This document shows positions 8,354-64,000 of a stretch of DNA of 64,000 nt, piece after piece. Position 1 is the stretch's first letter. The number at the start of each line of letters is the position of its first letter. The stretch spans positions 94,907 to 158,906 of the forward strand of contig JAVCCW010000010.1 of NCBI GenBank assembly GCA_030765235.1, given 5' to 3'. The notes below the pieces were generated by a model. That model was not told where the DNA came from, ran no database searches, and saw only the letters and a list, made by a program, of their open reading frames with translations. Made by a program: the position numbers and the translations under genes. The DNA comes from Candidatus Gorgyraea atricola. Lineage in GTDB: Bacteria; Omnitrophota; Gorgyraeia; Gorgyraeales; Gorgyraeaceae.

Positions 8354-8356
8354 AAG

Positions 8357-8971
8357 TTATTCAGGAATTACCAATTCCTGCCCTGGCTTGATATTATCAG
8401 GACTTTCTAAAATATTTTTGTTGGCTTCGAAAATCTTCTTCCATTTCTTTGTGGTGCCATATGCCTTGTCTGATATCTTTTGAAGTGTATCTCCCTTCTC
8501 TACTGTGTATATCCTTTCCCCTGTCTCTACTTTTCCTTCTCCTATAGTGCCACTACCTTTTTCCTTTCCATATTTATTATCTGAGCTTGCAGACGGTTGG
8601 TAAATTACTTGCGGTTTACTTGATCTGGTAAAAGGGAACAGTCCTTTTCTTCCTGTTTCTTTCTTTGCAGGAGCAGTTGCCTCTTTAGGAGATTCTTTCC
8701 CTGCCAAATACCCTCTGTTTCCTTCAATCGCCACATCTTTACGCGCTGATTTCTTATCTCTCCTTGAAGGAAGTTCTATCTCAAGATTGTACATCTTTTT
8801 GGTCTTTTTTCTTTCCACCTCAGGCATGTCTGAAACCTTACCCCCGATTATACCTCTGTTACCATTAAGTTCTTGATCAACCCTATCTGCCTCGTAAGAC
8901 GTTACTCTTGCCACACAGCCAGACACCACTAAAGCTGCAAAAAGTAAACTGTAAGCTATAAACTTTTTCAT
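8357..8971 (-). CDS. LysM-domain lipoprotein
   Basis: Lipoprotein signal LVVSGC; C-terminal Lys[28 protein letters not shown]. Confidence 0.7.
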
Positions 8972-10347
8972 ATAGCCTCCTTTGTTTTAGTTGCTAGTTT
9001 AATTCCTAATTCCCTCAGCTGTTTTGCATCTACTGACGATGGCGCATCTGTCATTGGGCAAGAGGCCTTTTGTGTCTTTGGGAATGCAATGACCTCTCTT
9101 ATGCTCTCGACCCCACATATCAATGAAAGAAGCCTGTCAAGACCAAATGCAATGCCGCCATGCGGAGGCGCGCCATAACTGAACGCCTCGAGCAAAAATC
9201 CGAATCTCTCTTTCGCGTGCGCTGCATCCAGGCCTATGCGCTGAAAAATTTTCTCTTGTAATTCCCTATTGTGGATCCTTATACTGCCACTGGCTATTTC
9301 CACGCCATTTATAACCAGGTCATAGGCCCTTGAGCCCACCTTATCAGGAGCTGACTCTATCAGATCTATATCTTCTGACACAGGTGATGTAAAAGGATGG
9401 TGCTCCATATCCCATCGCTTTTCTTCGTCATTATATTTAAAAAGCGGGAAGTTTAAAACCCACAGAAACTCAAACCCCTTGCCGTCTTTTCGCAGATCAG
9501 GCTTATCTGTCTTGTATTTTTCCATTGCCTCTTTATGACTGATCCTGGGAAAAGGGATCTTTAGTTCTATGCCTAAGACCTCCTTGAATACATGATAAAA
9601 CATTTTCTCTGCAACATTAAAGAGATCATCTTCATCTATAAAAGACATCTCCATGTCCAGCTGGGTAAATTCCGGCTGCCTGTCCGCGCGAAGATCCTCA
9701 TCCCTAAAGCACTTTGCTATCTGAAAATATTTCTCAAAACCAGACACCATCAAGAGCTGCTTGAAAAGCTGTGGTGACTGCGGAAGCGCGAAAAACTTAC
9801 TCAGGCTCAACCTAGAAGGTACCAGAAAATCCCTTGCGCCTTCTGGCGTGGATTTGGTAAGAATAGGCGTTTCTACCTCTATAAACCCGTCCTTATCCAG
9901 AAAATCCCTCATTGATTTACATACCTTGTGACGCAAAAATAATCTCTTCTGGACCTCAGGCCTTCTCAGATCGATGTATCTATACTTAAGCCTGACTTCC
10001 TCTGAGATATCTGTCATCTCATCAAGTTCAAAAGGAGGTGTCTTGGATGGATTTATTATTTCAAGCTCTTCCACTCCAAGCTCTACCTCGCCTGTTACTA
10101 TCTTTGGGTTATCAGTGCCCTTGGGCCTTTTCTGCACCTTACCCTTTACAGCTATCACGTACTCGCTGCGAAGCTCCTCTGCTTTTTTATTTTTAAAAAA
10201 CACGATCTGCGTAAAGCCAGAACGGTCTCTTATATCCACAAATATGATCTTCCCATGGTCCCGCCTCTTATACACCCAGCCAAGAAGCGTTGCCTCTTTA
10301 CCCATATCCTTTGCTGTCAATTCACCGCAGGTGTGTGTCCGCTTCAT
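8968..10347 (-). CDS. aspS: aspartate--tRNA ligase (short form, no GAD insertion)
   Basis: 459 aa; OB-fold N-terminus, [10 protein letters not shown], class II motifs [18 protein letters not shown] and GGIAFGLDR. Confidence 0.8.
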
Positions 10348-11575
10348 TGATTATCCTTTCTATTTCATTCAGATATACCTCTTGTTGCTGTTTAAGCTCC
10401 ATATCTCGTAGCACGATCTTTTTGTTTTTTAATTCTTCTTCACCAAAGATAATAACAAATCTCGCGCCGAGTTTTTCTGCTCGCCTCATCTGTGCCTTTA
10501 GAGATTTATCCTCGTAATCCATGTTGCACGAAAGACCTTTGCGCCTTAATTCATCCATAAATATAAAGGCCTTTTGGCGTGTGTTGCCAGCAGTTGCTAT
10601 AAAGATATCAAGCGCGGATTTACCTTCATTGTCTTTTTTCATGGCCATAATCAATCTTTCAATGCCAAACGCGAATCCTATTGCAGGCATATCCTTGCCG
10701 CCCATGTCTTTTACCAGGTTATTGTATCTGCCGCCTGCGCAGATCGCGTCCTTTGCGCCAAGATCCTTTTGCACTATCTCAAATACAGTCTTTGTGTAAT
10801 AATCCAGGCCACGTACTATTCTTTTATCTATTTCAAAATCTATTTTGAGATCCTTTAATCCTTTTTTTACAGTCTCGAAATGGCTGGAACAATCCTTACA
10901 CAATGAATCTGAGACCTCGATCTTTTCAACGATCCTTCCGCAGTCTGGATTCTTGCAGTCAAATATCCTTAGGACATTCTTAGTGTAACGCTGGTTGCAC
11001 TCACTACAGAGAGACTTTAGGTGCGGTTTGACAGCCTTTCTGTATTTTTCTATTATCTCTTTTTTATCCTTGTCGCAACCCAGGGTGTTTATCTTTAAAA
11101 CAAAATCAGTTATGCCTATTTTTTTCAAGAACCCTGCTGCGAGCGAAATGACCTCCACATCAATAAACGCGTTATCTGAGCCAATCGCCTCTACGCCCAG
11201 CTGATAAAACTGGCGCTGTCTGCCTTTTTGCGGACGCTCACTCCTGAACATGGGTCCTATATAAAATAATTTCGAAAGGGCCTCTTTCTGCGCCATGGAA
11301 TTTTCTATGTATGCCCGAACAATAGATGCTGTTGCCTCTGGCCTCAATGCAATATTTCTGCCGCCCCTGTCAGTAAATACATACATCTCCTTCTGGACTA
11401 TATCAGTGGCATCGCCTATGCTCCTAATAAAAAGAGACGCCTCCTCTATGATAGGCGTCCTTATCTCTTTATATCCATATATAGCAAATATATCCCTGGC
11501 AGATTTCTCTATACATTGCCAGAGACTGATTTCACTGGGTAATATATCTTTGGTACCGCGTAGGGCTTTTAGCAT
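10322..11575 (-). CDS. hisS: histidine--tRNA ligase
   Basis: [16 protein letters not shown] motifs. Start trimmed to the second Met ([10 protein letters not shown]) because the upstream extension runs into the intergenic hairpin. Confidence 0.85.
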
Positions 11576-11587
11576 ATAAATATCCAA

Positions 11588-11635
11588 GGTCCAGCCTCGG
11601 CTTTTTAGTAACAAAAAGCCGAGGCTGGACCTTAG
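11588..11635. terminator. Family G hairpin (aaggtccagcctcggcttttt / aaaaagccgaggctggacctt) downstream of HU gene
   Basis: Perfect stem read from sequence; T-runs on both sides; candidate bidirectional terminator. Confidence 0.55.
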
Positions 11636-11643
11636 TTTTTTAG

Positions 11644-11916
11644 TTATTTCACCTTTGCCTTCATCACAAGGCCGGGTTTGAATATTGCTACTTTTTTCGG
11701 TGCCACAGGTACCTGCTGGCCTGTCCTGGGATTGCGCCCCATGCGGCCTTTTCTCGACTTAGTCTTAAATACGCCGAAATTCCTGAGCTCGATCTTCTTC
11801 CCCTGCGCAAGCGAGTCGATTATAATATCAAACGTCATCTGCACAACCTGCTTAACATCAATCTGCTTAACATCAGTCTCATTCGAGATCTTTACAACGA
11901 TATCTTTCTTGGTCAT
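11644..11916 (-). CDS. HU/IHF family DNA-binding protein
   Basis: 90 aa; ..GKKIELRNFGVFKTKSRKGRMGRNPRTGQQVPVAPKKVAIFKPG.. HU arm signature. Confidence 0.85.
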   Translation of the reverse strand: MTKKDIVVKISNETDVKQIDVKQVVQMTFDIIIDSLAQGKKIELRNFGVFKTKSRKGRMGRNPRTGQQVPVAPKKVAIFKPGLVMKAKVK

Positions 11917-12012
11917 ACAAAACCTCCTTATGTTATCGTATCTAGTTTAATTACAAGGGGTAGTGTAACAGTTTCCAATTATGATGTCAAGAATGTTTTA
12001 TTAATATAACTT

Positions 12013-12060
12013 GTGGAGGTTACGAAGGTTACGGAAGGTTTCGCATTTGTACGGCTAACC
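12013..12060. repeat. Family B half copy (tgtggaggttacgaaggttacggaaggtttcg)
   Basis: One arm only. Confidence 0.7.
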
Positions 12061-12108
12061 TGGCAAAATCTAACCAGGTTAGATATTTATTTAGATATTT
12101 ATCCTATA

Positions 12109-13101
12109 TCACAAATTTACAGGAATTACGACAGAATGGACTTTTTCTTTTAAATTAAAACTATGGGGCTTTTGAAAAACTCTAATTGGCACTTTTCCTA
12201 AAACTAATGCTACATCGTCATAAAAACGGCTCTGGATGCTTTTTCCTGTAGATAAAACGTCTCTGACCTTTTTAAAAGTTGGTTGCGCTAAATAATCTAA
12301 ATATCCTAATTCTTTCATAATAAAATCTGAAAGCAATAAATCATCTCTTTCATGGGCAACAATAATAAAACCTCCGCTTTTGAGCAATTCCTCGCTTGTC
12401 TTTTTTATTAAATCTTTAATACTACTGTTAAGCCGTTTCTCGAATTCTGTTTTCTGGGCAGACTTGCTCCATTTAAACAACTCTGCGTCTGGGAATGCTT
12501 TATGATGTTCCGCCCAAGCCGTTAATCCTTTTATTAGCAGAACATCGACTCCGCCCGCTTTTTTAATTTTAGGAAAATACGACTTATAACTAAAGTTGTT
12601 TCTTGTAAACACTTTATATTTTTTTTTCATATTCCAATACATTTTTGGCAAACCTCTACCAATAGCTTCTTTTTCCAACAACTGCATATTTTTGACCGTA
12701 ACACCTATTCCATTTTTAACATTTAAACCAAAAGTCATAGTAAAATATGAAGGGAAATAATCATTCCCCCAAGAAAAATATAGTAAATTCCCTTTTAGCA
12801 CCTCTATAAAATTAAGCACCTCGAGCCTAGAGATCCAATTAGGGATTAGATTGTCGTAGTTGGTTTCCATAGAAATAATCTCTTTTAATTTTTTATTAAG
12901 TCTGTCTTGAGCCGCGAAACTATTGGAGATAATTTGTTCATTGAAATTTGCCGCTCTATCTTTATCTAATTTTAAATTTGAAGATAGAGGTTTTCTGAGA
13001 TGGACTATGTCAGAAGCATACAGAGAGCTATTAGCCATATATAATATGCCTACCAGCGCAATTGTGATTCTTAAGTTATTCCCTTTTCCAATCTCCTTCA
13101 T
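12109..13101 (-). CDS. hypothetical secreted protein (signal peptide, no recognisable domain)
   Basis: 330 aa ORF with N-terminal signal peptide; AT-rich; flanked by repeat elements. Confidence 0.5.
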   Translation of the reverse strand: MKEIGKGNNLRITIALVGILYMANSSLYASDIVHLRKPLSSNLKLDKDRAANFNEQIISNSFAAQDRLNKKLKEIISMETNYDNLIPNWISRLEVLNFIEVLKGNLLYFSWGNDYFPSYFTMTFGLNVKNGIGVTVKNMQLLEKEAIGRGLPKMYWNMKKKYKVFTRNNFSYKSYFPKIKKAGGVDVLLIKGLTAWAEHHKAFPDAELFKWSKSAQKTEFEKRLNSSIKDLIKKTSEELLKSGGFIIVAHERDDLLLSDFIMKELGYLDYLAQPTFKKVRDVLSTGKSIQSRFYDDVALVLGKVPIRVFQKPHSFNLKEKVHSVVIPVNL

Positions 13102-13208
13102 AATCCACCTAAAAAATCCTGCTTCGCAGGAATTCTGTTAGTTATTGATAATTATAGCATATAAATAGCAGCTACGCAACGATTTTAATGTCCTCCTACC
13201 CTTAGCTT

Positions 13209-13458
13209 TTTGCATCACAGGCAGGCTGGGGTCTGAGGCACATTAGGAAGATTTTGGCAAAAGTCCGCAAGGATTTACAGCGAGCCCCGTTCCAAATTCT
13301 TAAAGATTATCAAATAATATATCAAAATTGTACGCAGTTAGTTACAGATAATAAATCGAGAATCGATTAGAATTTGGAACGGGGCGAGCTGTAAACCGTA
13401 GCGGACGGCAAAATCTCTCCAGTGCCGAACGGCCCCAGCCTGTCTGTGATGCAAAAGC
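13209..13458. mobile_element. MITE-like long imperfect palindrome (two ~90 nt inverted copies around a ~70 nt AT-rich centre)
   Basis: Outer arms gcatcacaggcaggctgggg / ccccagcctgtctgtgatgc; inner arms agcgagccccgttccaaattct / agaatttggaacggggcgagct; no ORF. Confidence 0.55.
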
Positions 13459-16400
13459 CTAGTTTTTCTCAAATTTGATATGGTCGCGGCTTACGAATTC
13501 TTCTAGTTCGGTGAGCATGTCGTTGGTGACATTTACGAACAGGTCCTTGTCGACCTGGATGCGGTAGGCGCCGTTCTTCTTGGTGGAGACATTTAGGTAG
13601 ACAGGGGTAGTACCTTTGTGTCTTGCAAAAACAGTCTTTAATCTCTCGAGCATAGTCTCTTCCATGCCCAGCGAGATAAGATCAATGGAAATAGCCCGGG
13701 TAAAGCGTGTGCGTGCCTCCTCAATAGGAATGATCTCCTCGACTATTATCTTAGGACGGTCCTCCCTGAGATTTAGCCTGCCGCTCACAAACACAGCAAA
13801 ATTAGGCCTGATAAACTTTGAAACCTTCTTGTACGACGCTGGAAAAGCCAGGACCTCGACCTTGCCCTCCAGATCCTCTATCATCATAATAGCCATTCTC
13901 TCGCCAGTGCGCTTCGTGACCGTGCTCTTAACCTTATTGATAATGCCGCCAAACCAGACCTTTTGGCCATCCTTTAGATCCCTGAGTTCACTACTGTTAG
14001 CTGTTGAATATTCATTCAACTCCCTCTCGTACTTGGCAAGCGGGTGCCCTGTTATGTAAAATCCAAGCATCTCCTTTTCAAAATGAAGAAGCTGGCCCTC
14101 TGGCCATTCCTTTATATCTGGGGCCTCATCATGCATCTTTCTGTCATTAAAAAGCAGCATCTGGCCAGATGATTTTTCCTTCTGTATAGAGCTCGCTATG
14201 TCCATTGCCCTGGAAAGTATAACCATGAGCTGAGCCCTTTTAAAACCAAGGCTATCAAACGCGCCGCACTTTATAAGACTCTCCATCACCTTCTTATTTA
14301 CCAGGCGCGAATCCGTGTACTCGCAAAATTCACACAAAGACTTAAAGGCACCGTGCTCCTGTCTTGCCTGGATAATAGAATTTATAGCAGTCTGGCCCAC
14401 ATTTTTAACAGCACCCAGGCCAAAACGTATGGTGCTCTTTTCAACCATTGTAAAATTGGCAAAACTCTCATTTACATCAGGCGGCAGGATCTTCATGCCC
14501 ATCTCTTCTGCCTCGTTTATATACTCAACGATCTTGTCCGTATTATCTTTTTCGCTTGTTAGAAGCGCGGTCATGAACTCAACAGGGTAATTCGCTTTTA
14601 AAAACGCTGTCCTGTAGGAGATCATTGCGTACGCGGCAGAATGACTCTTATTAAATCCATACCCGGCAAAATGCTCTATGAAATTAAAGATCTTCTCAGC
14701 AATGCGCTTGTCGATCTTATTCTTCACAGCACCTTCAATAAACGCGCGGCGCTGCTGGTCCATTATCTCAGGCGTCTTCTTCCCTATCGCGCGGCGTAGA
14801 AGATCCGCCTGGGCAAGTGAAAAACCTGCCAGCTTAGAAACTATCATCATTACCTGTTCCTGATACACAATGATCCCGTATGTCGGCTTTAAGATAGACT
14901 CGAGCAATGGATGATCGTATCTTACATCCACTTCGCCGTGTTTTCGTTTCATAAAATCATCAAGCATGCCGCTTCCTATAGGACCAGGCCTATAAAGAGC
15001 CAAGAGCGCTACAATATCCTCGAACTCTTGAGGCTTTAACTTCTTTAGAAGATCCCTCATGCCTGAACTTTCTAACTGGAATATGCCCATTGTATGCGCG
15101 CGGCCAAAAAGCTTGTACGTCTTTGAATCATCTATTGGTATATCCTCGATATTTAATTTAATATTGTTTACCCTGTTTACTATCTTTATGGCCTCCTGGA
15201 TAACAGTGAGCGTCCTCAAGCCCAGAAAATCCATTTTTAAAAGACCTATCTTTTCGAGCGAACCCATGGCATAACCTGTTGAGATCTGACCATCCCCTGT
15301 CTTAAAAAGAGGTACGTGGTTTGATAGGACATCCTCGCTTATCACAACACCTGCGGCGTGAGTAGATGCGTGGCGTGTAAGGCCTTCGAGATGTCTCGAT
15401 GTATCAATAAGCTCTTTTATAATAGGATCTTTTTTGTAAAGGCCTTTGAGCTCTGGCTCTTGTTCAAGCGCCAGGTCCAACGTAATATTCGGATCCATTG
15501 GAACCATTTTGGCGATCTTGTCTACATCAGCGTAAGGCACATTCATTACCCTGCCGACATCCCTAAGGACGCCCCTTGCTGCCATTGTGCCAAATGTTAT
15601 GATCTGCGCTACATTATCCTGGCCATATTTCTTTATAACATAATCTATTACCTCACCCCTTCGCTCATAGCAAAAATCTATATCAATATCAGGCATGGTA
15701 ACGCGCTCACGATTCAAGAATCTTTCAAAAAGGAGATTGTATTTCAATGGATCGATGTCTGTTATGCCGAGACAGAAACTTACTATGCTTCCTGCCGCGG
15801 AACCCCTGCCAGGCCCGACTGCTATGCCCTTTTCTTTTGCAAAACTCACAAAATCCCTGGTGATAAGAAAATAACTCGTATACCCGGACTTATTGATTAC
15901 ATCCATTTCGTATTCGAGTCTTTGCCTTATCTCAGACGATGCGCCAGGATATTTCTTTTTTAGGCCCTGCTCGCAAAGATCCTTAAGGTATTTTTCGCGT
16001 GTCGTACCATCAGGCGCCACATAGTGCGGCAAATATGTCTTTGAAAAATCCAGTTCCAGATTACAGCGTTCTGTTATCTTTATGGTATTCTGGATCGCCT
16101 CAGGCACATCTTTAAAAAGAGCCTTCATCTCTTCAGGCGGCTTAAAATAAAACTGGTCTGTCTGCAGCTTCATGTGTTTTGGATCATCCAGGGTAGTCTG
16201 CGTCTGGATACAGAGAAGCGCCTCGTGCGCCCTGGCGCTGTCCTTACTAAGGTAATGCACGTCATTTGTCGCAACGAGCCCTATGTCCAGGGACCTGCCC
16301 AGCTTTATAAGGGTGGTATTTACGATCTCCTGTTCTGGGATGGAATTATTCTGGATCTCAAAATAGAAATTATCCTTACCTAAAATTTCGCGGTACTGGC

Positions 16401-55821: not shown

Positions 55822-56772
55822 CTATTTTTTACCCCTGCGGTCAAGCAATTTCTTCACGACCAACATATATCCCAATATCTTTAACTCATATAATACTATA
55901 AAAGGTAGATTCAATAATATGCCACGTAATGAATCATTCTTTTTTATGCATAAGTATCTATTCTTAATATACCTTCTCTTCAACTCCTCAGAAATACGGT
56001 GGACTAGGGGTTGGGGTGTCCTGTGAGTGGGAGGATCCACACCGGGCGGAGGGGCCCACGAACAGGATACCCCGACCTCTAGTCCACCCGCAGTTCCCCC
56101 TCTCACATGATACGCTAGTGCCTTCGGGTTATAATATGCTTTCCAATCCTTCTTCTGTGCTCTCCAACATAAGTCTAGATCTTCGTAATACATGTCAAAT
56201 CTCTCGTCAAAATATCCATATTTATCCCTTACATTCTTCAGCATGCTTTTTCTTAAAAAAGCGCATGCGCCGCTGGCTCCAAATACATATCCTGGCTCAT
56301 CATACTGCCCCTTGTCTACCTTTCCATAGCCTCTCTCGACTGGCTTTCTATTCTTGCCTAAAAATAATCCTGTTGAATCTATGGTCTTTTTATCCATTCT
56401 TAATATTTTTCCGCTTACCATGCCGATTCGCGTATCAAGACCTATCGCCAATAGAACCTGCCTCAGATAATCTTTGTCCAACACGCAGTCGTTATTCAGG
56501 CATAAGACAAAATTCCCTTTTGACGCATCAATGCCCTGATTCTGCGCTTTACAAAAAAGAAGGTTGCTGGTATTTCTGATCAATTGAACATCCGAATAAT
56601 ACATGGCTACCATCTCGATACTGCCATCGGTAGAGGCATTATCTACAACAATAGTCTCAATATCCTGAAAATTCTGTCCCCTTACGGAGTCCAGACACTG
56701 CCTCAACAAATCTTTCCTGTTGTAATTGACAATTATTATTGATATCATAGATTTAATTATATCATGAATCAA
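55822..56772 (-). CDS. GT2 glycosyltransferase carrying an in-frame 93-nt GC-rich palindromic insertion
   Basis: N-terminal IIIVNYNRKDLL..VVDNASTDGS; C-terminal ..RRYIKNRYLCIKKNDSLRGILLNLPF.. is normal GT2 tail. Between them lies a foreign 31-aa segment AGGLEVGVSCSWAPPPGVDPPTHRTPQPLVH. Confidence 0.8.
   Translation of the reverse strand: MIHDIIKSMISIIIVNYNRKDLLRQCLDSVRGQNFQDIETIVVDNASTDGSIEMVAMYYSDVQLIRNTSNLLFCKAQNQGIDASKGNFVLCLNNDCVLDKDYLRQVLLAIGLDTRIGMVSGKILRMDKKTIDSTGLFLGKNRKPVERGYGKVDKGQYDEPGYVFGASGACAFLRKSMLKNVRDKYGYFDERFDMYYEDLDLCWRAQKKDWKAYYNPKALAYHVRGGTAGGLEVGVSCSWAPPPGVDPPTHRTPQPLVHRISEELKRRYIKNRYLCIKKNDSLRGILLNLPFIVLYELKILGYMLVVKKLLDRRGKK
55997..56089. repeat. GC-rich palindromic element inside GT2 CDS (arms cggtggactaggggttggggtgtcctgt / acaggataccccgacctctagtccaccc)
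   Basis: 93 nt = 31 codons; locally very GC-rich against an AT-rich host gene; reads through in frame. Confidence 0.85.
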
Positions 56773-57945
56773 ACAGAAACCAAACCCTTATCACCCCTCA
56801 TATTTATTCCCTTATTATCCCTTATCTTCATCCGGCCTTTCATCTCTGGCCTTGCATACCCGGCCTTTGAGATGTTTTATGAAAACATCTTGATATTCCT
56901 TGCTATCATGATCTTATTCATGGAAAGATCCAGATTTAAACTGTATCCTAAAAATTTCAGTAACTTCCCTGTAATATTCCTATTATTTGCCTATGCTATT
57001 TCAACTATATTCTCGATCAACATACAAAACTCTATTAGAGAAACGCTTAAATTCATCAGTTTCTTTGCCATATTCTTTATGGTTTCCCAATCTGATGAAA
57101 AACAAAAGAAACTGCTGCTAAAGACCATTGTCATAGCTGCTTCAATAATAAGTCTGTATTCAATATACCAGTACTTCTGGGGATATGGACGCACACTAGA
57201 TTATCTACAAAAAACCAACAGCGATTTTCTCTCCACCTCTTCCTATGCCCGCGACATCCTGCTCTCAAAACGCGCAATAGGAACATTTCCCTCTCCGAAT
57301 ATCTTAGCTGGATACTTGATAATAATGTTTTTTCTCGCAATGCACTTACAGCGTCGCATTTCGCTAGTTCTAATCACTGCTGCGTTAATCCTCACTAAAT
57401 CCATGGGCGCGTGGTTAAGTCTTATTGCTGCACTGATCTACCTCGGTAACTTCGTAAGTTACCCAAAGGGTAACTTACGAAGTTACCGAGGTAAGTTAAT
57501 GGCAGTATTAATCGTAGCTATACTATGTTTTATCCTCGTGAATCGCTGGGAACGCCTGATGAACATGGAAAACCCGCAAAATTCCATTACCCAGCGCCTA
57601 AACTACTGGCGCACAGCCATAGCCATAATAAAAGATCAGGCTATTTTTGGAGTCGGACCTGGTAATTTTCAAGAAGTCTTCTTGGGGCATAAGGTAGGCT
57701 TAGGCACAGATACAAGATACGCGCATAACATATTTCTTCACATATGGTCAGAAATAGGTATCTTAGGTCTTGTAGGAGTCTTTTACCTTATTATTAATTT
57801 TTTCAGAAAAGCCAGATCTCAATCCAGCTATAGATTTATACTGTGCGGCGGGCTTGTGTTTATCCTGCATAATCTCATAGATAATACCTTTTTCATGCCT
57901 CAAGCTGCACTCTTCTGGTGGATATTACTGGCTTCTAAGGAATAG
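56764..57945 (+). CDS. O-antigen ligase/polymerase family membrane protein (Wzy_C domain)
   Basis: 393 aa polytopic membrane protein. Contains in-frame perfect palindrome at 57441-57491. Confidence 0.7.
   Translation: MNQTETKPLSPLIFIPLLSLIFIRPFISGLAYPAFEMFYENILIFLAIMILFMERSRFKLYPKNFSNFPVIFLLFAYAISTIFSINIQNSIRETLKFISFFAIFFMVSQSDEKQKKLLLKTIVIAASIISLYSIYQYFWGYGRTLDYLQKTNSDFLSTSSYARDILLSKRAIGTFPSPNILAGYLIIMFFLAMHLQRRISLVLITAALILTKSMGAWLSLIAALIYLGNFVSYPKGNLRSYRGKLMAVLIVAILCFILVNRWERLMNMENPQNSITQRLNYWRTAIAIIKDQAIFGVGPGNFQEVFLGHKVGLGTDTRYAHNIFLHIWSEIGILGLVGVFYLIINFFRKARSQSSYRFILCGGLVFILHNLIDNTFFMPQAALFWWILLASKE
57441..57491. repeat. Perfect 24-bp-arm palindrome inside O-antigen ligase CDS (cctcggtaacttcgtaagttaccc-aaa-gggtaacttacgaagttaccgagg)
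   Basis: 51 nt = 17 codons encoding LGNFVSYPKGNLRSYRG; words ttacgaag/cttcgtaa relate it to family B. Confidence 0.85.
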
Positions 57946-59603
57946 ACCCTATCCACGGCCATAAGTGTCGATGATCTATGAGAAACAGTAATCAGGCTTA
58001 TTTCTCCAAGGAGCTGTTTTATATTCAATAATATCTTTTCCTCGCTGGCTGAATCCACAGAAGACATTGCCTCATCAAGGATCAGGATCCTGGGCCTTTT
58101 AATTATTGCACGGGCAATGGCGATCCTTTGCTTTTGTCCTTCTGATATCTTGCAGGCATTTTCACCTATAACCGTTTCATATCCATCAGGAAGATTATTT
58201 ATAAAATCATCGGCCAAAGAATGCCTGGCGGCCTCACATATCTCAGCCCTACTCGCGTTCTTTTTTCCATAGGCAATATTGTTCGCTACAGTATCGTTGA
58301 ACAAAAAAGGTTCCTGCAATGCCATGCCGATCTGTTCTTTTAGGCTCCCCATCTTCATGTCCTTGATATTGACACCATCAATAAGGATCTCTCCCTGCCA
58401 TGGATCATAAAGCCTTACGATTAAATTCAATAATGTGGTCTTGCCAGCGCCTGAAGGCGCAAAAAAACCAATATGCTTATTGCCTTCTATTGAAAAACTT
58501 AGATCCTTTAGGATAGGCTTGCCCGGCATATATCCAAAGCTAACGTTTTTAAATTGTATATTGCCTTGACTGAAAACAATGTTTCTTGCGCCTTTGTCCT
58601 CAATGACCATCCCTTCTTCATCTAAAATAGCAGCCACCCTTTGACAGGAGATAAGCCCCAATACAGCTGTTTGAAAAAATCCTACAAAGCTATTCTGCAT
58701 AGCTACTAGCTGCCCCAGGTAGACCAATATCGCTGCAAGACTTCCAAGACTCATTTCTCCCCTGATAACCATATATCCGCCGTAAAAACTAATAAGGCCT
58801 ATAATGATCTTACTCCCCGCATTCGCGGCAAAAGCGCCAAAGATATCCAGCCTTACACTGCTAAGCTCTATCTTTATATTGTCCATCAACTGCCTCAGGT
58901 ATTTCTTCGTCTCGACATTTTCTTTATTAAATACCTTAATAAGAGGGATGTGAGAAAAAAGCTCCTGAATGGATTTAAAAATATTCTGAGAATTCCCGAT
59001 CAATCTTTCCCAGACCTTCCTTCTTTTATTGATAAAATAATATGACGGTAAATAGAGGAAGGGTGTGAGAAAAAAAGCGAGGACTGCAATCCTCCAGTTA
59101 AGATGCGATATAATAATAAGGATAAGCACAAGTTTAGGAAAAAGGGCTATGGCCCGAGGAAGCGTAGTCGCAACAAGATCTTTTACCCTGCTAATATCGT
59201 GATCGATCTTATAAAGATGCTCCCCTGTGCTTTTATTTTGAAACCAGCTAAGCGGAAGGATCTCTATCTTTTTAAAAACCTTCTTGTTTAGATCAAATTT
59301 TATTCTTAATTTTACATATCTCTCTAAATATTGCCCGAACCCGTTTATAATTCCTATAACAATAAAAACTGCCCCGCCTATGATTACCAGAATGACAAAG
59401 GTCTTTAAATCCTTATTTCCTATTGCCTTATCAACGACTAATTTTGTCAAATACGGATTGATCAGCCCCAGCAATGCCCCAAAACCACTCAGGAAGATAA
59501 TTGCTGCCCATTTTTCTCTATAAGGCAAGAGTAATTTTATAAATCTTAAGAAAAGCGCCTGCTGTTTCTTGTCTAATCTTATTTTATGCCGGGAAAAATT
59601 CAT
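57900..59603 (-). CDS. ABC exporter, fused permease + ATPase (no C39 peptidase domain)
   Basis: 567 aa; 6 TM helices then Walker A GAGKTTL, LSGGQRQR, Walker B ILDEA. Confidence 0.85.
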   Translation of the reverse strand: MNFSRHKIRLDKKQQALFLRFIKLLLPYREKWAAIIFLSGFGALLGLINPYLTKLVVDKAIGNKDLKTFVILVIIGGAVFIVIGIINGFGQYLERYVKLRIKFDLNKKVFKKIEILPLSWFQNKSTGEHLYKIDHDISRVKDLVATTLPRAIALFPKLVLILIIISHLNWRIAVLAFFLTPFLYLPSYYFINKRRKVWERLIGNSQNIFKSIQELFSHIPLIKVFNKENVETKKYLRQLMDNIKIELSSVRLDIFGAFAANAGSKIIIGLISFYGGYMVIRGEMSLGSLAAILVYLGQLVAMQNSFVGFFQTAVLGLISCQRVAAILDEEGMVIEDKGARNIVFSQGNIQFKNVSFGYMPGKPILKDLSFSIEGNKHIGFFAPSGAGKTTLLNLIVRLYDPWQGEILIDGVNIKDMKMGSLKEQIGMALQEPFLFNDTVANNIAYGKKNASRAEICEAARHSLADDFINNLPDGYETVIGENACKISEGQKQRIAIARAIIKRPRILILDEAMSSVDSASEEKILLNIKQLLGEISLITVSHRSSTLMAVDRVYSLEASNIHQKSAA

Positions 59604-59605
59604 AT

Positions 59606-60760
59606 CTATTTTTTAGATGTCCTTTTGAATGTCTCAAGCGATGCAGCGCGGGCATGGGCTACTTCGCAAAAATAATCTACCGGCTTATCTAATTCTCCTG
59701 TCTCTAAATGAGCGTGTGCTGGACACCAGGTACAGAGATTGATGATAGGGCAGATCCGGCATTTCTTCAAAAAATCTTCTCTTTTTGAGCGTTTATCCCT
59801 CACCCGAAGGACAAAATTCCGATATGCTTCAAGTAATGTCCCATTCTTAAGGTCATAGACACAATCCGGATGCCAGAGCGAAGAGCAAAGTCGGAAAAAA
59901 CCGTCATAGCTTACCGCAAAACTGCCGTTGCCTGCGCCGCAATGAAAGAGATGATCACAGTTAGTGTGAGCAAAATCAGGGTCAATGAACTTGCCGCAAG
60001 ATTCTTCTAATGCCTTGAAACGTTCTGAGTCATTTTTTTCAATTGAAACTATCTCTTCAGGAAGAAGCCGCTCGGATCTTATTTCTTTATTTCTTCCTGT
60101 ATCACCGTCAAAACGAAGATGCAAAAACGGATCAAAACGGAAATAATCCTTGGTCTTTTGCCTGCAAAATTGAGAAATAACAGTTAATTCATGGATGTTT
60201 GAACGCAGGGCCATTGTCTTAAGGCGCACCTTGATCTTGTTTTTGAGCAGAAGATCTAAGCCTTTCATAAAAGCATTGAAGGAGCCTGGATTTCTGGTTA
60301 CCTTCTCATAGGTTCCTTTAGTCGCGCCGTATACTGTTACTTCAATGTTGCGCGGCGGGTACCTTTTGAAAAATTTAATGTGTCTTTCTGTTATCAATGT
60401 AGCGTTAGTAAAAACCGAGACTAAAAGGCCTTTTTTCTTGAGATGCAGATATATATCAAAAAAATCTTCCCTTAAAAGAGGTTCGCCTCCTGTAATCAGG
60501 CACCACAATGCTCCTAAATCAGCTGCCTCGTCAATGATATTCTTTATCTGCTGAAACTTGAGCTCTTTTGATTTCGCGCAAGAATCTCCTGCTGGTAAAT
60601 TTATATAGCAGTGTCTGCAATTATTGTTACAGCGCGCGGCAATCTCTAAGTCAAAAGAGATAAGCTGCCTATTATTCTTCATCTTGTTCCAAAGGGAAAA
60701 CCGAGGCAAGGAAACTCGGGACACAAAAGATCTTTTCATGATATCAAACTCTTGATCCAA
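59606..60760 (-). CDS. radical SAM/SPASM-domain peptide maturase (paralog 1)
   Basis: CNNNCRHC (Cx3Cx2C), GGEPLL, C-terminal Cys-rich SPASM region ..CRICPIINLCTWCPAHAH.. Confidence 0.85.
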   Translation of the reverse strand: MDQEFDIMKRSFVSRVSLPRFSLWNKMKNNRQLISFDLEIAARCNNNCRHCYINLPAGDSCAKSKELKFQQIKNIIDEAADLGALWCLITGGEPLLREDFFDIYLHLKKKGLLVSVFTNATLITERHIKFFKRYPPRNIEVTVYGATKGTYEKVTRNPGSFNAFMKGLDLLLKNKIKVRLKTMALRSNIHELTVISQFCRQKTKDYFRFDPFLHLRFDGDTGRNKEIRSERLLPEEIVSIEKNDSERFKALEESCGKFIDPDFAHTNCDHLFHCGAGNGSFAVSYDGFFRLCSSLWHPDCVYDLKNGTLLEAYRNFVLRVRDKRSKREDFLKKCRICPIINLCTWCPAHAHLETGELDKPVDYFCEVAHARAASLETFKRTSKK

Positions 60761-61224
60761 AAAATAAAAGATAATAATCTTGTCTTGCTCAAAAAAGCAA
60801 TTATAAACCGTTCCAGGCCAAAACCAAGTTGAGTTTTCCTGCCTGCCCTTTCTACTTTCGACACAACGCCTAAAATGTCCTTCATTGGAATCAAACCGTC
60901 AGTCTCAACAGAGTTATCTCCTTTTATAAGATAATAATCGCCTTTTTTACCTACTACTCTATGAATAACAAGCCTCCCTGTCTGAGCGTGGATAAAAGCT
61001 ACTGGCTTACCAAAACCTATTGGATGATCAAGCAGCGGGGAAATAGTAACTACATCGCCATTTTTAATAAACGGTGACATGCTAAAACCCATAGCCTTAA
61101 ACCTAAAAGGAATTCTCATGCCAGTGGCAGCTTGAAGCAATCCAGTCATTGCTTCCCCTGAAAGAGAAAGTTCTTCTTCAGGAACTACGCAATATCCTGC
61201 TTTAATCTCGCTTGACTTCAACAA
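60736..61224 (-). CDS. S24/S26-family serine peptidase (candidate leader peptidase)
   Basis: 162 aa; GFSMSPFIKNGDVVTI resembles the catalytic Ser region of signal peptidase I / LexA-like peptidases. Confidence 0.6.
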   Translation of the reverse strand: MLKSSEIKAGYCVVPEEELSLSGEAMTGLLQAATGMRIPFRFKAMGFSMSPFIKNGDVVTISPLLDHPIGFGKPVAFIHAQTGRLVIHRVVGKKGDYYLIKGDNSVETDGLIPMKDILGVVSKVERAGRKTQLGFGLERFIIAFLSKTRLLSFIFWIKSLIS

Positions 61225-61504
61225 GCATTCTCCTTTTGAGTAATTCTTCGACCAGCCCTAATACATCTTTTTCTATTTCTATCTTAGATGATTCAAATTC
61301 TGCCCCCAGATCATCCGCTAAATCTTTTAAGCTTTTTTTTCCATCTATCCTGCGCCAAATTGCCTGTCCGGTCTCATTGAGACTAAATATCGCATCTTCT
61401 AAATCCGCTACCCCTGAAGTTATGGGAATAATAATAAACTCTCCTTGTATCTCTCGCGCGACTATATCTTCAGACGGTTTATAAACACTTTCGATGTGGC
61501 CCAT
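61202..61504 (-). CDS. PqqD-family peptide chaperone (RiPP recognition element)
   Basis: 100 aa; ..LNETGQAIWRRIDGKKSLKDLADDLGAEF.. typical PqqD fold signature. Confidence 0.8.
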   Translation of the reverse strand: MGHIESVYKPSEDIVAREIQGEFIIIPITSGVADLEDAIFSLNETGQAIWRRIDGKKSLKDLADDLGAEFESSKIEIEKDVLGLVEELLKRRMLVEVKRD

Positions 61505-61525: not shown

Positions 61526-62698
61526 TTATTTTGTAAATTTCCTGATCCGATCCTTCCCGTCCTTGATCTCCCATGCCATTTCACCTTCTTTTATCAGGCC
61601 CAGAAATCTTGCCTGAGCATGGGCAATTTCACAATAATATTCTACCGGCGTATCTAAGGTGCCGCTTTCTAAGCAGGATTTTGCAGGACATTGCGCGCAC
61701 AGGCCTTTTAAAAAACATTTAGCACAGCGATTTAAATAATCAGGATTGATAGCTTTTATCTCTCTTACTTTTGGAAAAAAATTAATCAGCGCATCTTTAA
61801 GAGAACCCTTTTTAAGATCATAGACTGTCTCCTTCTGTCTAAGCAACATACAGGGCTGAAACATACCATAAGCATCCACGCATCCGCTGGCACGGCCGGC
61901 CCCGCAGGAAAAAAGTCTATCACCAGATGGCCGCATAAATTTTGAGCAAAATTCTTTCATATTATTAAGGTATCTATTTTTTTGGCGGGTAAGAACTCTA
62001 AGTCCCTGCTCTGGCGTAACTCTGAGTTTTTTAATTGATTCATTTTTCCGACTATCATACCTGCGCCGCAGGTTAAAAAACATAGAATAAGGCGGCGATT
62101 TGCCTATCCATGGAATATTTTTAGCCCATTTCTCGAATTCATCGATTTCATCTTTGTTAGGCGGCAGTAACGAGCTTTTCACTATAAAAGGGGTCTTTTT
62201 CTCCAGTAGTAAATTTATGCCCCGCCAGGCCGCTTCAAATGAACCGGAAACCCTGGTTACGCCTTCATACGAGGCCTTTCTCATCCCGTAAACTGTAACC
62301 TCCACTTTTTCTAAGGGCGGGATATGACTCAATAGATCAGCTAATTTAGACGTAATCAAAGTGGCATTGGTAAAAAGCAATACCTTTAAACCAAGCTTCC
62401 TCGCGAAAACATATAATTCCTCAAAATCATCCCTTAAAAGCGGCTCCCCTCCTGTAAACCGTACTGTAAGGCAATCCAGAGAAACTGCTTCCTTGAGAAT
62501 ATTTTTTATCTGACTAGTAGATAACTCTTTATCTTTGGCATTCAAATCACCTTCCGGCAGATTTATGCAGCAGTGAATACAGTTATTATTACAGCGTTCG
62601 GTAAGTTCTATATCCAAACTACCTAAAACTGGCATGCTATTCTTCCACAATAAAGCTTTACTTGTTTCCTGTTTTTTAACGTAAAGACTGCTCTTCAT
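61526..62698 (-). CDS. radical SAM/SPASM-domain peptide maturase (paralog 2)
   Basis: CNNNCIHC, GGEPLL, SPASM Cys cluster ..CAKCFLKGLCAQCPAKS..; paralogous to 59606-60760. Confidence 0.85.
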   Translation of the reverse strand: MKSSLYVKKQETSKALLWKNSMPVLGSLDIELTERCNNNCIHCCINLPEGDLNAKDKELSTSQIKNILKEAVSLDCLTVRFTGGEPLLRDDFEELYVFARKLGLKVLLFTNATLITSKLADLLSHIPPLEKVEVTVYGMRKASYEGVTRVSGSFEAAWRGINLLLEKKTPFIVKSSLLPPNKDEIDEFEKWAKNIPWIGKSPPYSMFFNLRRRYDSRKNESIKKLRVTPEQGLRVLTRQKNRYLNNMKEFCSKFMRPSGDRLFSCGAGRASGCVDAYGMFQPCMLLRQKETVYDLKKGSLKDALINFFPKVREIKAINPDYLNRCAKCFLKGLCAQCPAKSCLESGTLDTPVEYYCEIAHAQARFLGLIKEGEMAWEIKDGKDRIRKFTK

Positions 62699-62721: not shown

Positions 62722-62913
62722 CTAAGAAGTTACATTCCCATCACAGTCAGCACAAACTTCCGGCATCTTACAAACGCTGTATGCTGTGCCTGCGAAGATG
62801 CTACTCTCTTCATCCTTTTCCTTGCAAGCTATCAGAACACCCTCCTCTGGTTTGCCTCTCATCAGCACAATCAGTTTTGGTCTCTCCCATTTTTTCTTCG
62901 CTTCTCTCTTCAT
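62722..62913 (-). CDS. RiPP precursor peptide B (leader MKREAKKKWERPKLIVL..GKPEEGVL; 4-Cys core ending -VTS)
   Basis: GGAGG 5 nt upstream of ATG 62913 (ORF track starts 12 nt earlier at 62925); immediately upstream of the rSAM gene; paralog of the 62959-63150 peptide. Confidence 0.75.
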   Translation of the reverse strand: MKREAKKKWERPKLIVLMRGKPEEGVLIACKEKDEESSIFAGTAYSVCKMPEVCADCDGNVTS

Positions 62914-62958: not shown

Positions 62959-63150
62959 TCACGACGTCACAAGGACGTCACACCTCAGGTTAGCGCATAG
63001 ATCCACTCTAAAACATGATGCAAACGCGTTATCAGGGCCGATCATGCCGGGAAAAGTCTTGCAGCTCTGCAACACCCACTCTTCAGGTTTCCCTTTGGTT
63101 AAAATAATCAGCTTCGGCTTTTCCCATTTTTTCTTAGCTTCTTTCTTCAT
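62959..63150 (-). CDS. RiPP precursor peptide A (leader MKKEAKKKWEKPKLIIL..GKPEEWVL; 4-Cys core ending -VTS)
   Basis: Conserved leader with peptide B at protein and DNA level; alternative upstream start at 63174. Confidence 0.75.
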   Translation of the reverse strand: MKKEAKKKWEKPKLIILTKGKPEEWVLQSCKTFPGMIGPDNAFASCFRVDLCANLRCDVLVTS

Positions 63151-63180
63151 CTTTACCGCTTCCTCTGCATCCAACCTGCT

Positions 63181-64000
63181 CTACATCTGCCTCAAGGCAT
63201 CCACTATTTCTCCGCTTTTGTCAAAACGTAGAACATAAACAGGGACTCTTGCGGCTAAATTATCTATAACCAACAATGTCTTCTCCCACCAATCTACAGT
63301 TACAAATGGCCTTATCAAACAAGATAAGAGTTTTCTCACTATCTCTTTCTTGTCCTCAATACGCAAAATTTTATTTTCCAATGACTTCTCCAGAAAGAAA
63401 ATAGCTTTCAGCGCAGCAGAATTACTTGAGATATCAGGTATATCGCCGTGACTCCACGTCCCATAGATCCTAAACTTGCCTGCTTTTCTTCTTACGATCA
63501 TCCTGTCATCGCAAAGTATCTCGGCTTTTCCTTTTAACATTGTTGCCATTGTAGACTTACCTGCTTCAGAGTGCCCGGCAAAAAGCAGGCCCTTGCCTTC
63601 AAAATTAACACCGCAGGAATGCAAATAGCAGCCTTCTCTATCAGCTAAAATTCTTGCAAAGAGTATCTGATCAGTAGGGAACATAGTCAGAGAGTGCAGA
63701 TTCCCTCTTAAGAACATTTCTTTCTTATCGTTATAGATCCTGGCCCTGGTATGGCCTGAGTTAAATGTCGCAACGCAATGTGGACTTTTTCTATTCCCAT
63801 CTGGATAAATAACCCCAGAATAAATCCATGAGCCGTTATTTTTATATATTGCCCAAGGGGACCTGCAGTAAACCTCTTCGCCAAAATTCCTGCCGTTTAA
63901 ATCCGGCAGAGAAAAATGATGCCGGATATAAATAGTATCTTCTCTATGTCCATCAACCTCAAATTTTTTGAATTTGGAATGGAATGTTTGCTCATTTATC
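63181..64000 (-). CDS. HPr-kinase-like P-loop kinase (open reading frame continues beyond right window edge)
   Basis: GHSEAGKST P-loop resembling the HprK C-domain GxSGxGKS; the frame stays open upstream of the first Met to the window end, so the N-terminus is probably outside the window. Confidence 0.65.
   Translation of the reverse strand, partial: INEQTFHSKFKKFEVDGHREDTIYIRHHFSLPDLNGRNFGEEVYCRSPWAIYKNNGSWIYSGVIYPDGNRKSPHCVATFNSGHTRARIYNDKKEMFLRGNLHSLTMFPTDQILFARILADREGCYLHSCGVNFEGKGLLFAGHSEAGKSTMATMLKGKAEILCDDRMIVRRKAGKFRIYGTWSHGDIPDISSNSAALKAIFFLEKSLENKILRIEDKKEIVRKLLSCLIRPFVTVDWWEKTLLVIDNLAARVPVYVLRFDKSGEIVDALRQM

Follow-up and report, generated by a model that had tools for sequence, protein, structure and literature searches.

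The 64,000-nucleotide stretch of DNA analysed here, which we call the window, ends in the gene of an HprK-like P-loop protein (63181..64000, minus strand) that appears from its sequence context to be the first gene of an operon for a peptide that is made by the ribosome and modified after translation (RiPP). On the same strand follow, in this order, two precursor peptide genes, a radical S-adenosylmethionine (rSAM)/SPASM gene, a gene for a PqqD-type RiPP recognition element (RRE), an SpI-like peptidase gene, a second rSAM/SPASM gene and an MsbA-like exporter gene, and the genes after the precursors are densely packed or overlapping. We propose that the P-loop protein is probably an ATP-dependent peptide-tailoring kinase, which would act on the C-terminal Ser/Thr of rSAM peptide precursors. 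The proposal is drawn from the gene set, the protein fold, the conservation of the active site, a co-occurrence that holds in both directions, the invariance of the terminal Ser/Thr and the homology to characterised peptide kinases. An earlier note on this DNA had pointed to an HPrK-like P-loop protein (GHSEAGKST) directly upstream of two precursors that end in Ser, and this arrangement was borne out, as the first small open reading frame (ORF) begins 7 nt past the kinase stop, the second follows 33 nt after the first, and both peptides end in ...VTS.

The terminal Ser of the precursors is conserved far above chance. Precursor A (62959..63150, minus strand) and precursor B (62722..62913, minus strand) are each 63 aa long from an ATG, with the longest ORFs starting from a TTG at 63174 and from 62925, respectively, and they match a hidden Markov model (HMM) of the precursor family with E = 5e-21 and E = 7e-22. 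No NCBIfam or Pfam model matches either peptide. Both have the same sequence as annotated 63-aa proteins from Candidatus Gorgyraea atricola (Omnitrophota), P9L93_02760 and P9L93_02755 (P0121 and P0124), and both were found again on four independent metagenome contigs. Precursor A consists of a leader, KKKWEKPKLIIL...PEEWVLQSCK, and a core with three further Cys residues that ends in CDVLVTS, while precursor B ends in CDGNVTS. A profile of seven precursors retrieved 145 relatives. In 120 precursors taken from the database, the last residue is Ser in 93 cases and Thr in 24, and the three exceptions resemble frameshifted or read-through gene calls. In a set of loci seeded with the kinase (25 genomic and 49 metagenomic, annotated with purpose-built HMMs), the HMM detected 66 unique precursors, of which 63 have a terminal Ser and one a terminal Thr, and one exception is a truncated ORF. 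As the precursor HMM contains the last column of the peptide, we repeated the detection with a leader-only regular expression that is blind to the C-terminus; all 56 unique precursors obtained in this way from the kinase-seeded loci end in Ser or Thr, whereas the unannotated small ORFs of these loci do so at a background rate of 16% (binomial P = 5e-45). When non-redundant precursors were aligned on their invariant Cys-Lys (n = 164), 140 ended in Ser and 24 in Thr, i.e., 100% Ser/Thr, and at any other position Ser/Thr reached at most 34%, which makes the terminal hydroxyl residue the sole conserved candidate phosphoacceptor.

The association between kinase and precursors extends well beyond the window. 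The close kinase family has an identical gene set throughout the kinase-seeded loci, and in another Omnitrophota locus (L030) even the order is that of the window, i.e., ScmC (the family name of the kinase, see below), precursor, rSAM, PqqD, peptidase, rSAM and ABC exporter. The same gene set recurs in loci from Desulfobacterota, Chloroflexota, Aminicenantes, Actinomycetes and Clostridia. In the reverse direction, all four precursor-seeded loci on long contigs, two of them with Thr-ending precursors, carry genes for ScmC, PqqD, the peptidase and two to three rSAM proteins. The earlier note had reckoned with kinase homologues that do not accompany this peptide family in other genomes; the 56 of 56 Ser/Thr-ending precursors and the presence of ScmC in these four loci speak otherwise. 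In a distant clade, mostly Acidobacteriota with kinases about 30% identical, the order is PqqD, rSAM, precursor, ScmC-like protein and peptidase, and all precursors end in ...GS.

The kinase frame runs uninterrupted off the window edge, and from 63999 to the stop codon at 63181 it gives 272 visible aa; the part given in the ORF list starts at an internal Met at 63717. Homologues are about 295 aa long (typically 290-300) and start only about 25 residues earlier, so that the window holds almost the whole gene and misses about 25 residues at the N-terminus. The closest relative, L030, likewise starts at a contig edge, and exact-protein look-ups with the first rSAM enzyme and with precursors A and B gave only metagenome contigs of 1.4-2.3 kb. 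In an alignment to the HprK/P of L. casei (PDB 1jb1), in which LHSCGVNFEGKGLLFAGHSEAGKST...LCDDR lines up with ...IADDR, the Walker A motif, the active-site His and the Asp-Asp pair are all present in the window kinase. The Walker A motif or P-loop, GHSEAGKST (63550..63576, minus strand), aligns with GDSGVGKSE, and its pattern G.S..GK[ST] is kept in 117 of 120 close homologues. LCDDR (63502..63516, minus strand), which corresponds to the catalytic Asp-Asp of HprK/P (IADDR), is kept in 119 of the 120, and the His in LHSCGV (63619..63621, minus strand), which aligns with the active-site His of HprK/P (MHGVLV), forms the invariant column H127 of the family alignment. A database search returned 1349 homologues, of which the best 120 are 50-80% identical over approximately 100% of their length, and together with the conserved active site this rules out a chance ORF.

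We then asked to which family the kinase belongs. Its best NCBIfam match is TIGR04249 (ScmC), at 35.7 bits against a cutoff of 125 (E = 5.6e-9) and over profile positions 120-228 only, followed by HprK_rel_B with 30 bits and HprK_rel_A with 12.8 bits, and it reaches 20 bits against a cutoff of 33.3 for PF07475. By these scores it belongs to the HprK-related superfamily, yet to no curated family within it. The Pfam family PF27840 ('ScmC') is precomputed for all of the 120 closest homologues, including P0001 at 80% identity, and membership of the window kinase is judged by proxy through these matches. The homologues come from Omnitrophota, Desulfobacterota, Aminicenantes, Planctomycetota, Poribacteria and other phyla, and an exhaustive profile search gave 363 clusters (50% identity) at E <= 1e-30 and 4540 at E <= 1e-10. 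On this basis we place the kinase in ScmC, an uncharacterised family of P-loop proteins with the HprK/PEPCK fold.

The window kinase has the catalytic-domain fold of HprK/P (PDB 1jb1, 3tqf, 1ko7) and shares its phosphate-binding and catalytic residues, which raises the question of whether the protein could be a bona fide HPr kinase/phosphorylase, a regulator of carbon metabolism that only by chance has RiPP genes as neighbours. HprK/P, however, has its own N-terminal domain and an HPr partner, and the window kinase has neither and sits in a RiPP operon. Its score against TIGR00679 (hpr-ser) is 21.8 bits against a cutoff of 240. The N-terminal regulatory domain of HprK is absent; instead, the N-domain of the window kinase (about 100 residues, beta-rich) aligns better with PEPCK, with 190-195 residues aligned. 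A tblastn search of the 64-kb window with E. coli and B. subtilis HPr sequences did not find HPr (ptsH; best E = 9.4). The gene order with precursors, rSAM and PqqD genes is strictly kept across phyla, and fusions to rSAM proteins occur. A true HprK/P with its regulatory domain and a nearby ptsH, the other objection foreseen in the earlier note, is by these findings effectively refuted, and the sequence suggests instead a P-loop protein of the HprK/PEPCK fold whose phosphotransfer site is apparently intact.

C-terminal phosphorylation, as proposed here, is carried out by the homologous kinases of paeninodin-type lasso peptides. These HprK homologues (PadeK and its proteobacterial homologues; Zhu et al. 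2016, reviewed in PMC8498205) act on the linear precursor and phosphorylate its C-terminal Ser at the hydroxyl; the remaining sequence matters little, and kinase-associated lasso precursors share little except that Ser (PMC8498205). The window cluster and the paeninodin type have in common a homologous HprK-type P-loop domain (His, GxSGAGKS, Asp-Asp), a discrete PqqD-type RRE, a Ser end, an ABC exporter and a [W/Y]xxPx[L/I] motif in the leader. This lasso-type (WxxPxL) motif, which is recognised by discrete lasso-peptide RREs (PMC13381572), stands at fixed spacing in the precursor family, with W in 131, P in 150 and L in 130 of the 164 precursors; the leader consensus reads KKxWxxPxLIVLxRGxPEExVLxxCK and the window leaders read KKKWEKPKLIxL..PEExVLxxCK. 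A lasso locus from Paenibacillus cremeus (L025) allows a direct comparison. It holds a lasso cyclase, a lasso precursor that reads MKREWQKPELEVLEV...DLTFS and, next to this, an HprK-like gene for 309 aa, and both the KREWQKPELEVL leader and the terminal Ser of this precursor are as in the window family. In contrast to the paeninodin type, which has a lasso cyclase and a B2 protease, the window cluster has two rSAM/SPASM proteins, an SpI-like peptidase and Cys-rich cores, and its precursor family may end in Thr as well as Ser. Neither a lasso cyclase nor a B2 leader peptidase is found among its eight genes, and it is therefore not a lasso cluster.

The second point of comparison are the linear polyphosphorylated peptides (LPP; LppK/LppB/LppS/LppD/LppN), described in 2026 in Nat Commun (PMC13381572). 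LppK, encoded in an SpI/RRE/kinase/MsbA cluster, polyphosphorylates its core peptide at Ser3, and the leader is cleaved off by the SpI-like peptidase and the RRE together (PMC13381572). An HprK-like kinase, a discrete RRE, an archaeal-type SpI peptidase and an MsbA-like exporter form a module common to both cluster types, and the LPP core gene set minus its nucleotidyltransferase equals the non-rSAM genes of the window cluster. This combination of RRE, kinase, peptidase and exporter matches the phosphorylated paeninodin and LPP systems. LppK-type kinases are also the closest characterised relatives of the window kinase: hhalign aligned the ScmC family with the LppK-type kinase of L025 over the whole catalytic domain (98% probability, E = 3e-14). 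L025 and a Peribacillus kribbensis locus (L026) encode 260-aa kinases beside peptides with YxRPxVLxHQPxxFETAQSWNK, the LPP signature, in clusters (L025 7015-15284; L026 7410-11975) that comprise a precursor ending in ...FETAQSWNK, the kinase, an RRE, an ABC exporter and an NTP transferase. In L025 this LPP-type cluster lies directly beside the lasso cluster with its own 309-aa kinase, which agrees with the co-localisation described in PMC13381572. LPPs are linear and made without rSAM enzymes, whereas the window cluster has two rSAM/SPASM maturases; the LPP leader, YxxPxVLxHQxIxFETxxS, is absent from the window precursors; and LPP precursors lack the Ser end of the window precursors. The rSAM maturases, the different leader and the Ser-ending precursors indicate that the window cluster is not an LPP cluster. 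LPP clusters further contain a nucleotidyltransferase (LppN), and none lies in the 64-kb window.

The relationship to LppK makes the phosphorylation site the main uncertainty of our model, since this nearest relative uses an internal Ser, and several observations weigh against a C-terminal site or against kinase activity as such. The profile score of the family is nearer to the LppK-type kinase (E ~1e-14) than to the L025 lasso-type kinase, to which the window family is only distantly similar (profile E = 2e-7), and LppK modifies Ser3 of the core and not the C-terminus (PMC13381572). LppK also rejects a change of Ser to Thr (PMC13381572), whereas 15% of the precursors here end in Thr. The P-loop has Glu/Asp where HprK/P has Gly (GHSEAGKS versus GDSGVGKS), the kinase scores far under the cutoff of every curated NCBIfam kinase model, and its N-terminus and upstream neighbourhood lie beyond the window edge. 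Finally, it could be another enzyme, e.g., an rSAM protein, the peptidase or the exporter, that requires the terminal Ser/Thr and keeps it conserved. Taken together, the first of these points outline an active RiPP kinase that modifies an internal core Ser/Thr in the manner of LppK, with the terminal residue kept for another reason, e.g., as the acceptor of an rSAM cross-link or as a recognition element for peptidase or exporter. The LPP precursors, with their core Ser3 and no Ser end, would fit this scheme, as would the 24-34% Ser/Thr found at positions +2 to +5 past the invariant Cys-Lys. However, 34% is the maximum for internal Ser/Thr compared with 100% at the C-terminus, no internal Ser is conserved, and precursor B of the window reads Glu-Lys-Asp after its CK. 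The terminal Ser, moreover, follows the kinase through three peptide classes, i.e., lasso peptides, the window family and the acidobacterial clade. We consider the internal site unlikely and retain the C-terminal Ser/Thr as the predicted target.

In many lineages the ScmC domain is joined to the C-terminus of a third rSAM/SPASM protein. Such fusions are found at L003 1955-4045, L006 6876-8864, L007 6858-8831, L008 6855-8870, L032 5852-7807, L033 5864-7876, L034 1-2175, L036 178-2139 and L083 3827-5782, as well as in L010. Those listed with coordinates are 636-724 aa long, and in their clusters both window rSAM genes still have an orthologue. Among the top 150 representatives of the family, about 26 are fusion proteins with a length of 560 aa or more, and in 19 of the 120 closest kinase homologues the N-terminus is made up of the SPASM end of an rSAM protein. 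Frequent fusion might also be expected of a pseudokinase, i.e., a ScmC protein that serves as a non-catalytic scaffold or peptide-binding partner of the rSAM enzymes, and both the low similarity to curated kinase models and the replacement of the second Gly of the HprK/P P-loop would be in line with it. Against this stands the near invariance of the Walker A Lys-Ser/Thr, of Asp-Asp and of His in hundreds of sequences from many phyla, which is not expected of a degenerate site and renders a pseudokinase very improbable. We read the recurrent fusions, together with the NTP_transf_5 homologues present in some relatives (compare the phosphoglycosylated pseudomycoidin), as pointing to functional coupling in favour of an active peptide kinase.

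Coupling to the rSAM enzymes could also mean that the terminal phosphate is transient, serving as a leaving group or a handle, so that the end product would not be a simple phosphopeptide. Options include beta-elimination with ring closure onto the Cys at position -7, rSAM radical chemistry, or sugar transfer by a nucleotidyltransferase. A Cys at position -7 from the C-terminus (C-x5-S/T) is present in 103 of the 164 precursors, including both window peptides, in which it lies within the last eight codons, stop included (62959-62982 and 62722-62745, minus strand; CDVLVTS and CDGNVTS); in the acidobacterial clade the spacing is C-x4-S. The rSAM/SPASM-ScmC fusions would likewise suit a transient phosphate. 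So would pseudomycoidin, in which the C-terminal phospho-Ser is phosphoglycosylated (PMC8498205), and the carbohydrate-related surroundings: NTP_transf_5 or sugar-metabolism genes adjoin several relatives, and the window cluster is itself adjoined, past the exporter, by a divergent Wzy_C (O-antigen ligase-like) gene (56764-57945, plus strand) and a GT2 glycosyltransferase gene (55822-56772, minus strand), beyond which lie housekeeping genes. On the other hand, the window cluster holds no lyase, LanC-like cyclase or nucleotidyltransferase, no nucleotidyltransferase lies in the 64-kb window, and phosphate persists in the detected products of paeninodin (PMC8498205) and LPP (PMC13381572). We regard a phosphate that is lost or replaced as rather unlikely, and a retained C-terminal phosphate is the outcome we favour. 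As the fusions recur and the Cys at -7 is conserved, they are compatible with a further, tentative idea to which we assign a low though somewhat higher probability, namely that kinase and rSAM enzymes act jointly on the C-terminal residue and give either a phosphate-dependent C-terminal thioether ring or a phospho(glyco)sylated rSAM-cross-linked peptide. If true, this would be a new RiPP class, common in uncultivated phyla, e.g., Omnitrophota, Aminicenantes, Desulfobacterota and Acidobacteriota.

NTP_transf_5 homologues accompany the kinases in paeninodin, pseudomycoidin and LPP clusters, and in the ScmC family they occur in a subset of loci (L006, L034, L041, L042, L081, L082 and L084), a partner shared between some window-cluster relatives and the paeninodin type. 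A phmmer search with six homologues found none in the 64-kb window, the region upstream of the kinase being outside it. LPP clusters are embedded among glycosyltransferases (PMC13381572), and both cluster types tend to sit amid such genes. In relatives of the window cluster, the adjoining carbohydrate-related genes are Glycos_transf_4, GT4, DegT, WbqC, PIG-L, PGM_PMM and NTP_transf_5 (e.g., L081 401-3404; L082 709-4332; L084 2877-3989 and 13387-14733). The glycosyltransferase-type neighbours may hint at phosphoglycosylation, or they may be a coincidence.

Homology and comparative genomics lead us to infer the following pathway, in every step, from the phosphotransfer and its site to the order of the steps and the nature of the rSAM cross-links. 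The PqqD-type RRE would bind the WxxPxL motif of the leader, and the kinase would use ATP to phosphorylate the invariant C-terminal Ser (in about 15% of the family, Thr) at its side-chain hydroxyl. The two rSAM/SPASM enzymes would then cross-link the Cys-containing core, probably via thioethers, after which the SpI-like peptidase would remove the leader and the ABC pump would export the product. In relatives with NTP_transf_5, the phosphate may receive further decoration.

The proteins that would carry out these steps are recognisable to different degrees. Maturase 1 (61526..62698, minus strand; Pfam Radical_SAM, 68 bits) has full-length but below-cutoff matches to the PapB-type ranthipeptide maturase and NirJ2, and further below-cutoff NCBIfam matches to ScmE/ScmF and PqqE. 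Its paralogue, maturase 2 (59606..60760, minus strand; Pfam Radical_SAM, 75 bits), scores 86.7 bits against ScmE and matches PapB and ACGX-type maturases over its full length; the two align with each other at E ~1e-81. The predicted leader-binding protein, a discrete PqqD-type RRE (61202..61504, minus strand; Pfam PqqD, 57 bits), has below-cutoff NCBIfam matches to PQQ_PqqD, lasso_PqqD_Bac and ScmD. The putative leader peptidase, of the SpI-like type (archaeal-type signal peptidase I / S24-S26; 60736..61224, minus strand), gives weak matches to TIGR02228 (sigpep_I_arch; best match, E = 3.7e-8) and Pfam Peptidase_S24, and in LPP clusters a gene of this type has been shown to encode the leader peptidase (PMC13381572). 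The MsbA-like ABC exporter (57900..59603, minus strand; Pfam ABC_membrane and ABC_tran) has no peptidase domain and matches MsbA, HepA and HlyB-type models in NCBIfam.

In the types of its proteins, namely one related to HprK, a homologue of PqqD and two rSAM/SPASM proteins like PqqE, the cluster appears to match the SynChlorMet cassette (TIGR04248-TIGR04251; PF27840). The window proteins score below the equivalog cutoffs of its models (ScmC 35.7/125, ScmD 27.5/100, ScmE 86.7/400 and ScmF 77.9/400), and since all four are far under, we regard the window cluster as a sister system of this cassette and not as the cassette itself. To our knowledge, the TIGRFAMs text assigns neither a function nor a precursor to the SynChlorMet cassette, and we know of no earlier description of the ScmC family that includes precursors. 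In the literature searched, no paper mentions the cassette and none ties an HprK-like kinase to rSAM/SPASM peptides; Letzel et al. 2014 mention HPr kinase in lasso clusters only. What was already known is the catalogued protein family (PF27840; TIGR04249, 'ScmC') and peptide kinases of the same fold, HprK-type kinases having been found to tailor lasso peptides and, from 2026, linear polyphosphorylated peptides. What is newly supplied are the precursor peptides, their lasso-like leader and the invariant C-terminal Ser/Thr, through which a catalogued but function-less ScmC / SynChlorMet-like family gains a concrete predicted role. We therefore see here a well-supported and directly testable prediction and not a categorically new system. 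Should the prediction hold, the products would carry a C-terminal phosphate in addition to rSAM cross-links, and a module of leader, RRE, kinase, SpI peptidase and exporter would be common to, and swapped among, at least three RiPP classes. As most producers are uncultivated, heterologous expression from sequence would be the route to the chemistry.

Individual relatives depart from the window cluster in several ways. In L033, 11 precursor genes, diverse in their cores and all Ser/Thr-ending, separate the rSAM-ScmC fusion from PqqD (7920-12856). In the Thr-ending members L081 (9368-11463) and L082 (9337-11355), DUF5838 and FAD_binding_3 genes lie right behind the precursor; they are absent from the window and may encode extra tailoring enzymes. 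In the close relative L031 (822-5791; 61% identity) the rSAM genes are split into short ORFs beside ParE/Phd and PIN toxin-antitoxin genes, indicating either a decaying cluster or long-read frameshift errors. The Desulfobulbaceae locus L008 has a second HprK-like ORF of 302 aa past the ABC exporter (12913-13821), with 33 bits against HprK_rel_A and 32 bits against hpr-ser, which the P-loop regular expression does not match. The SpI/S24-like peptidase domain of the acidobacterial clade is the N-terminal part of giant ORFs, which span 2300-2660 aa (L012 8506-16506; L013 8347-16332; L014 8536-16527; L050 3110-10084; L076 3587-10582).

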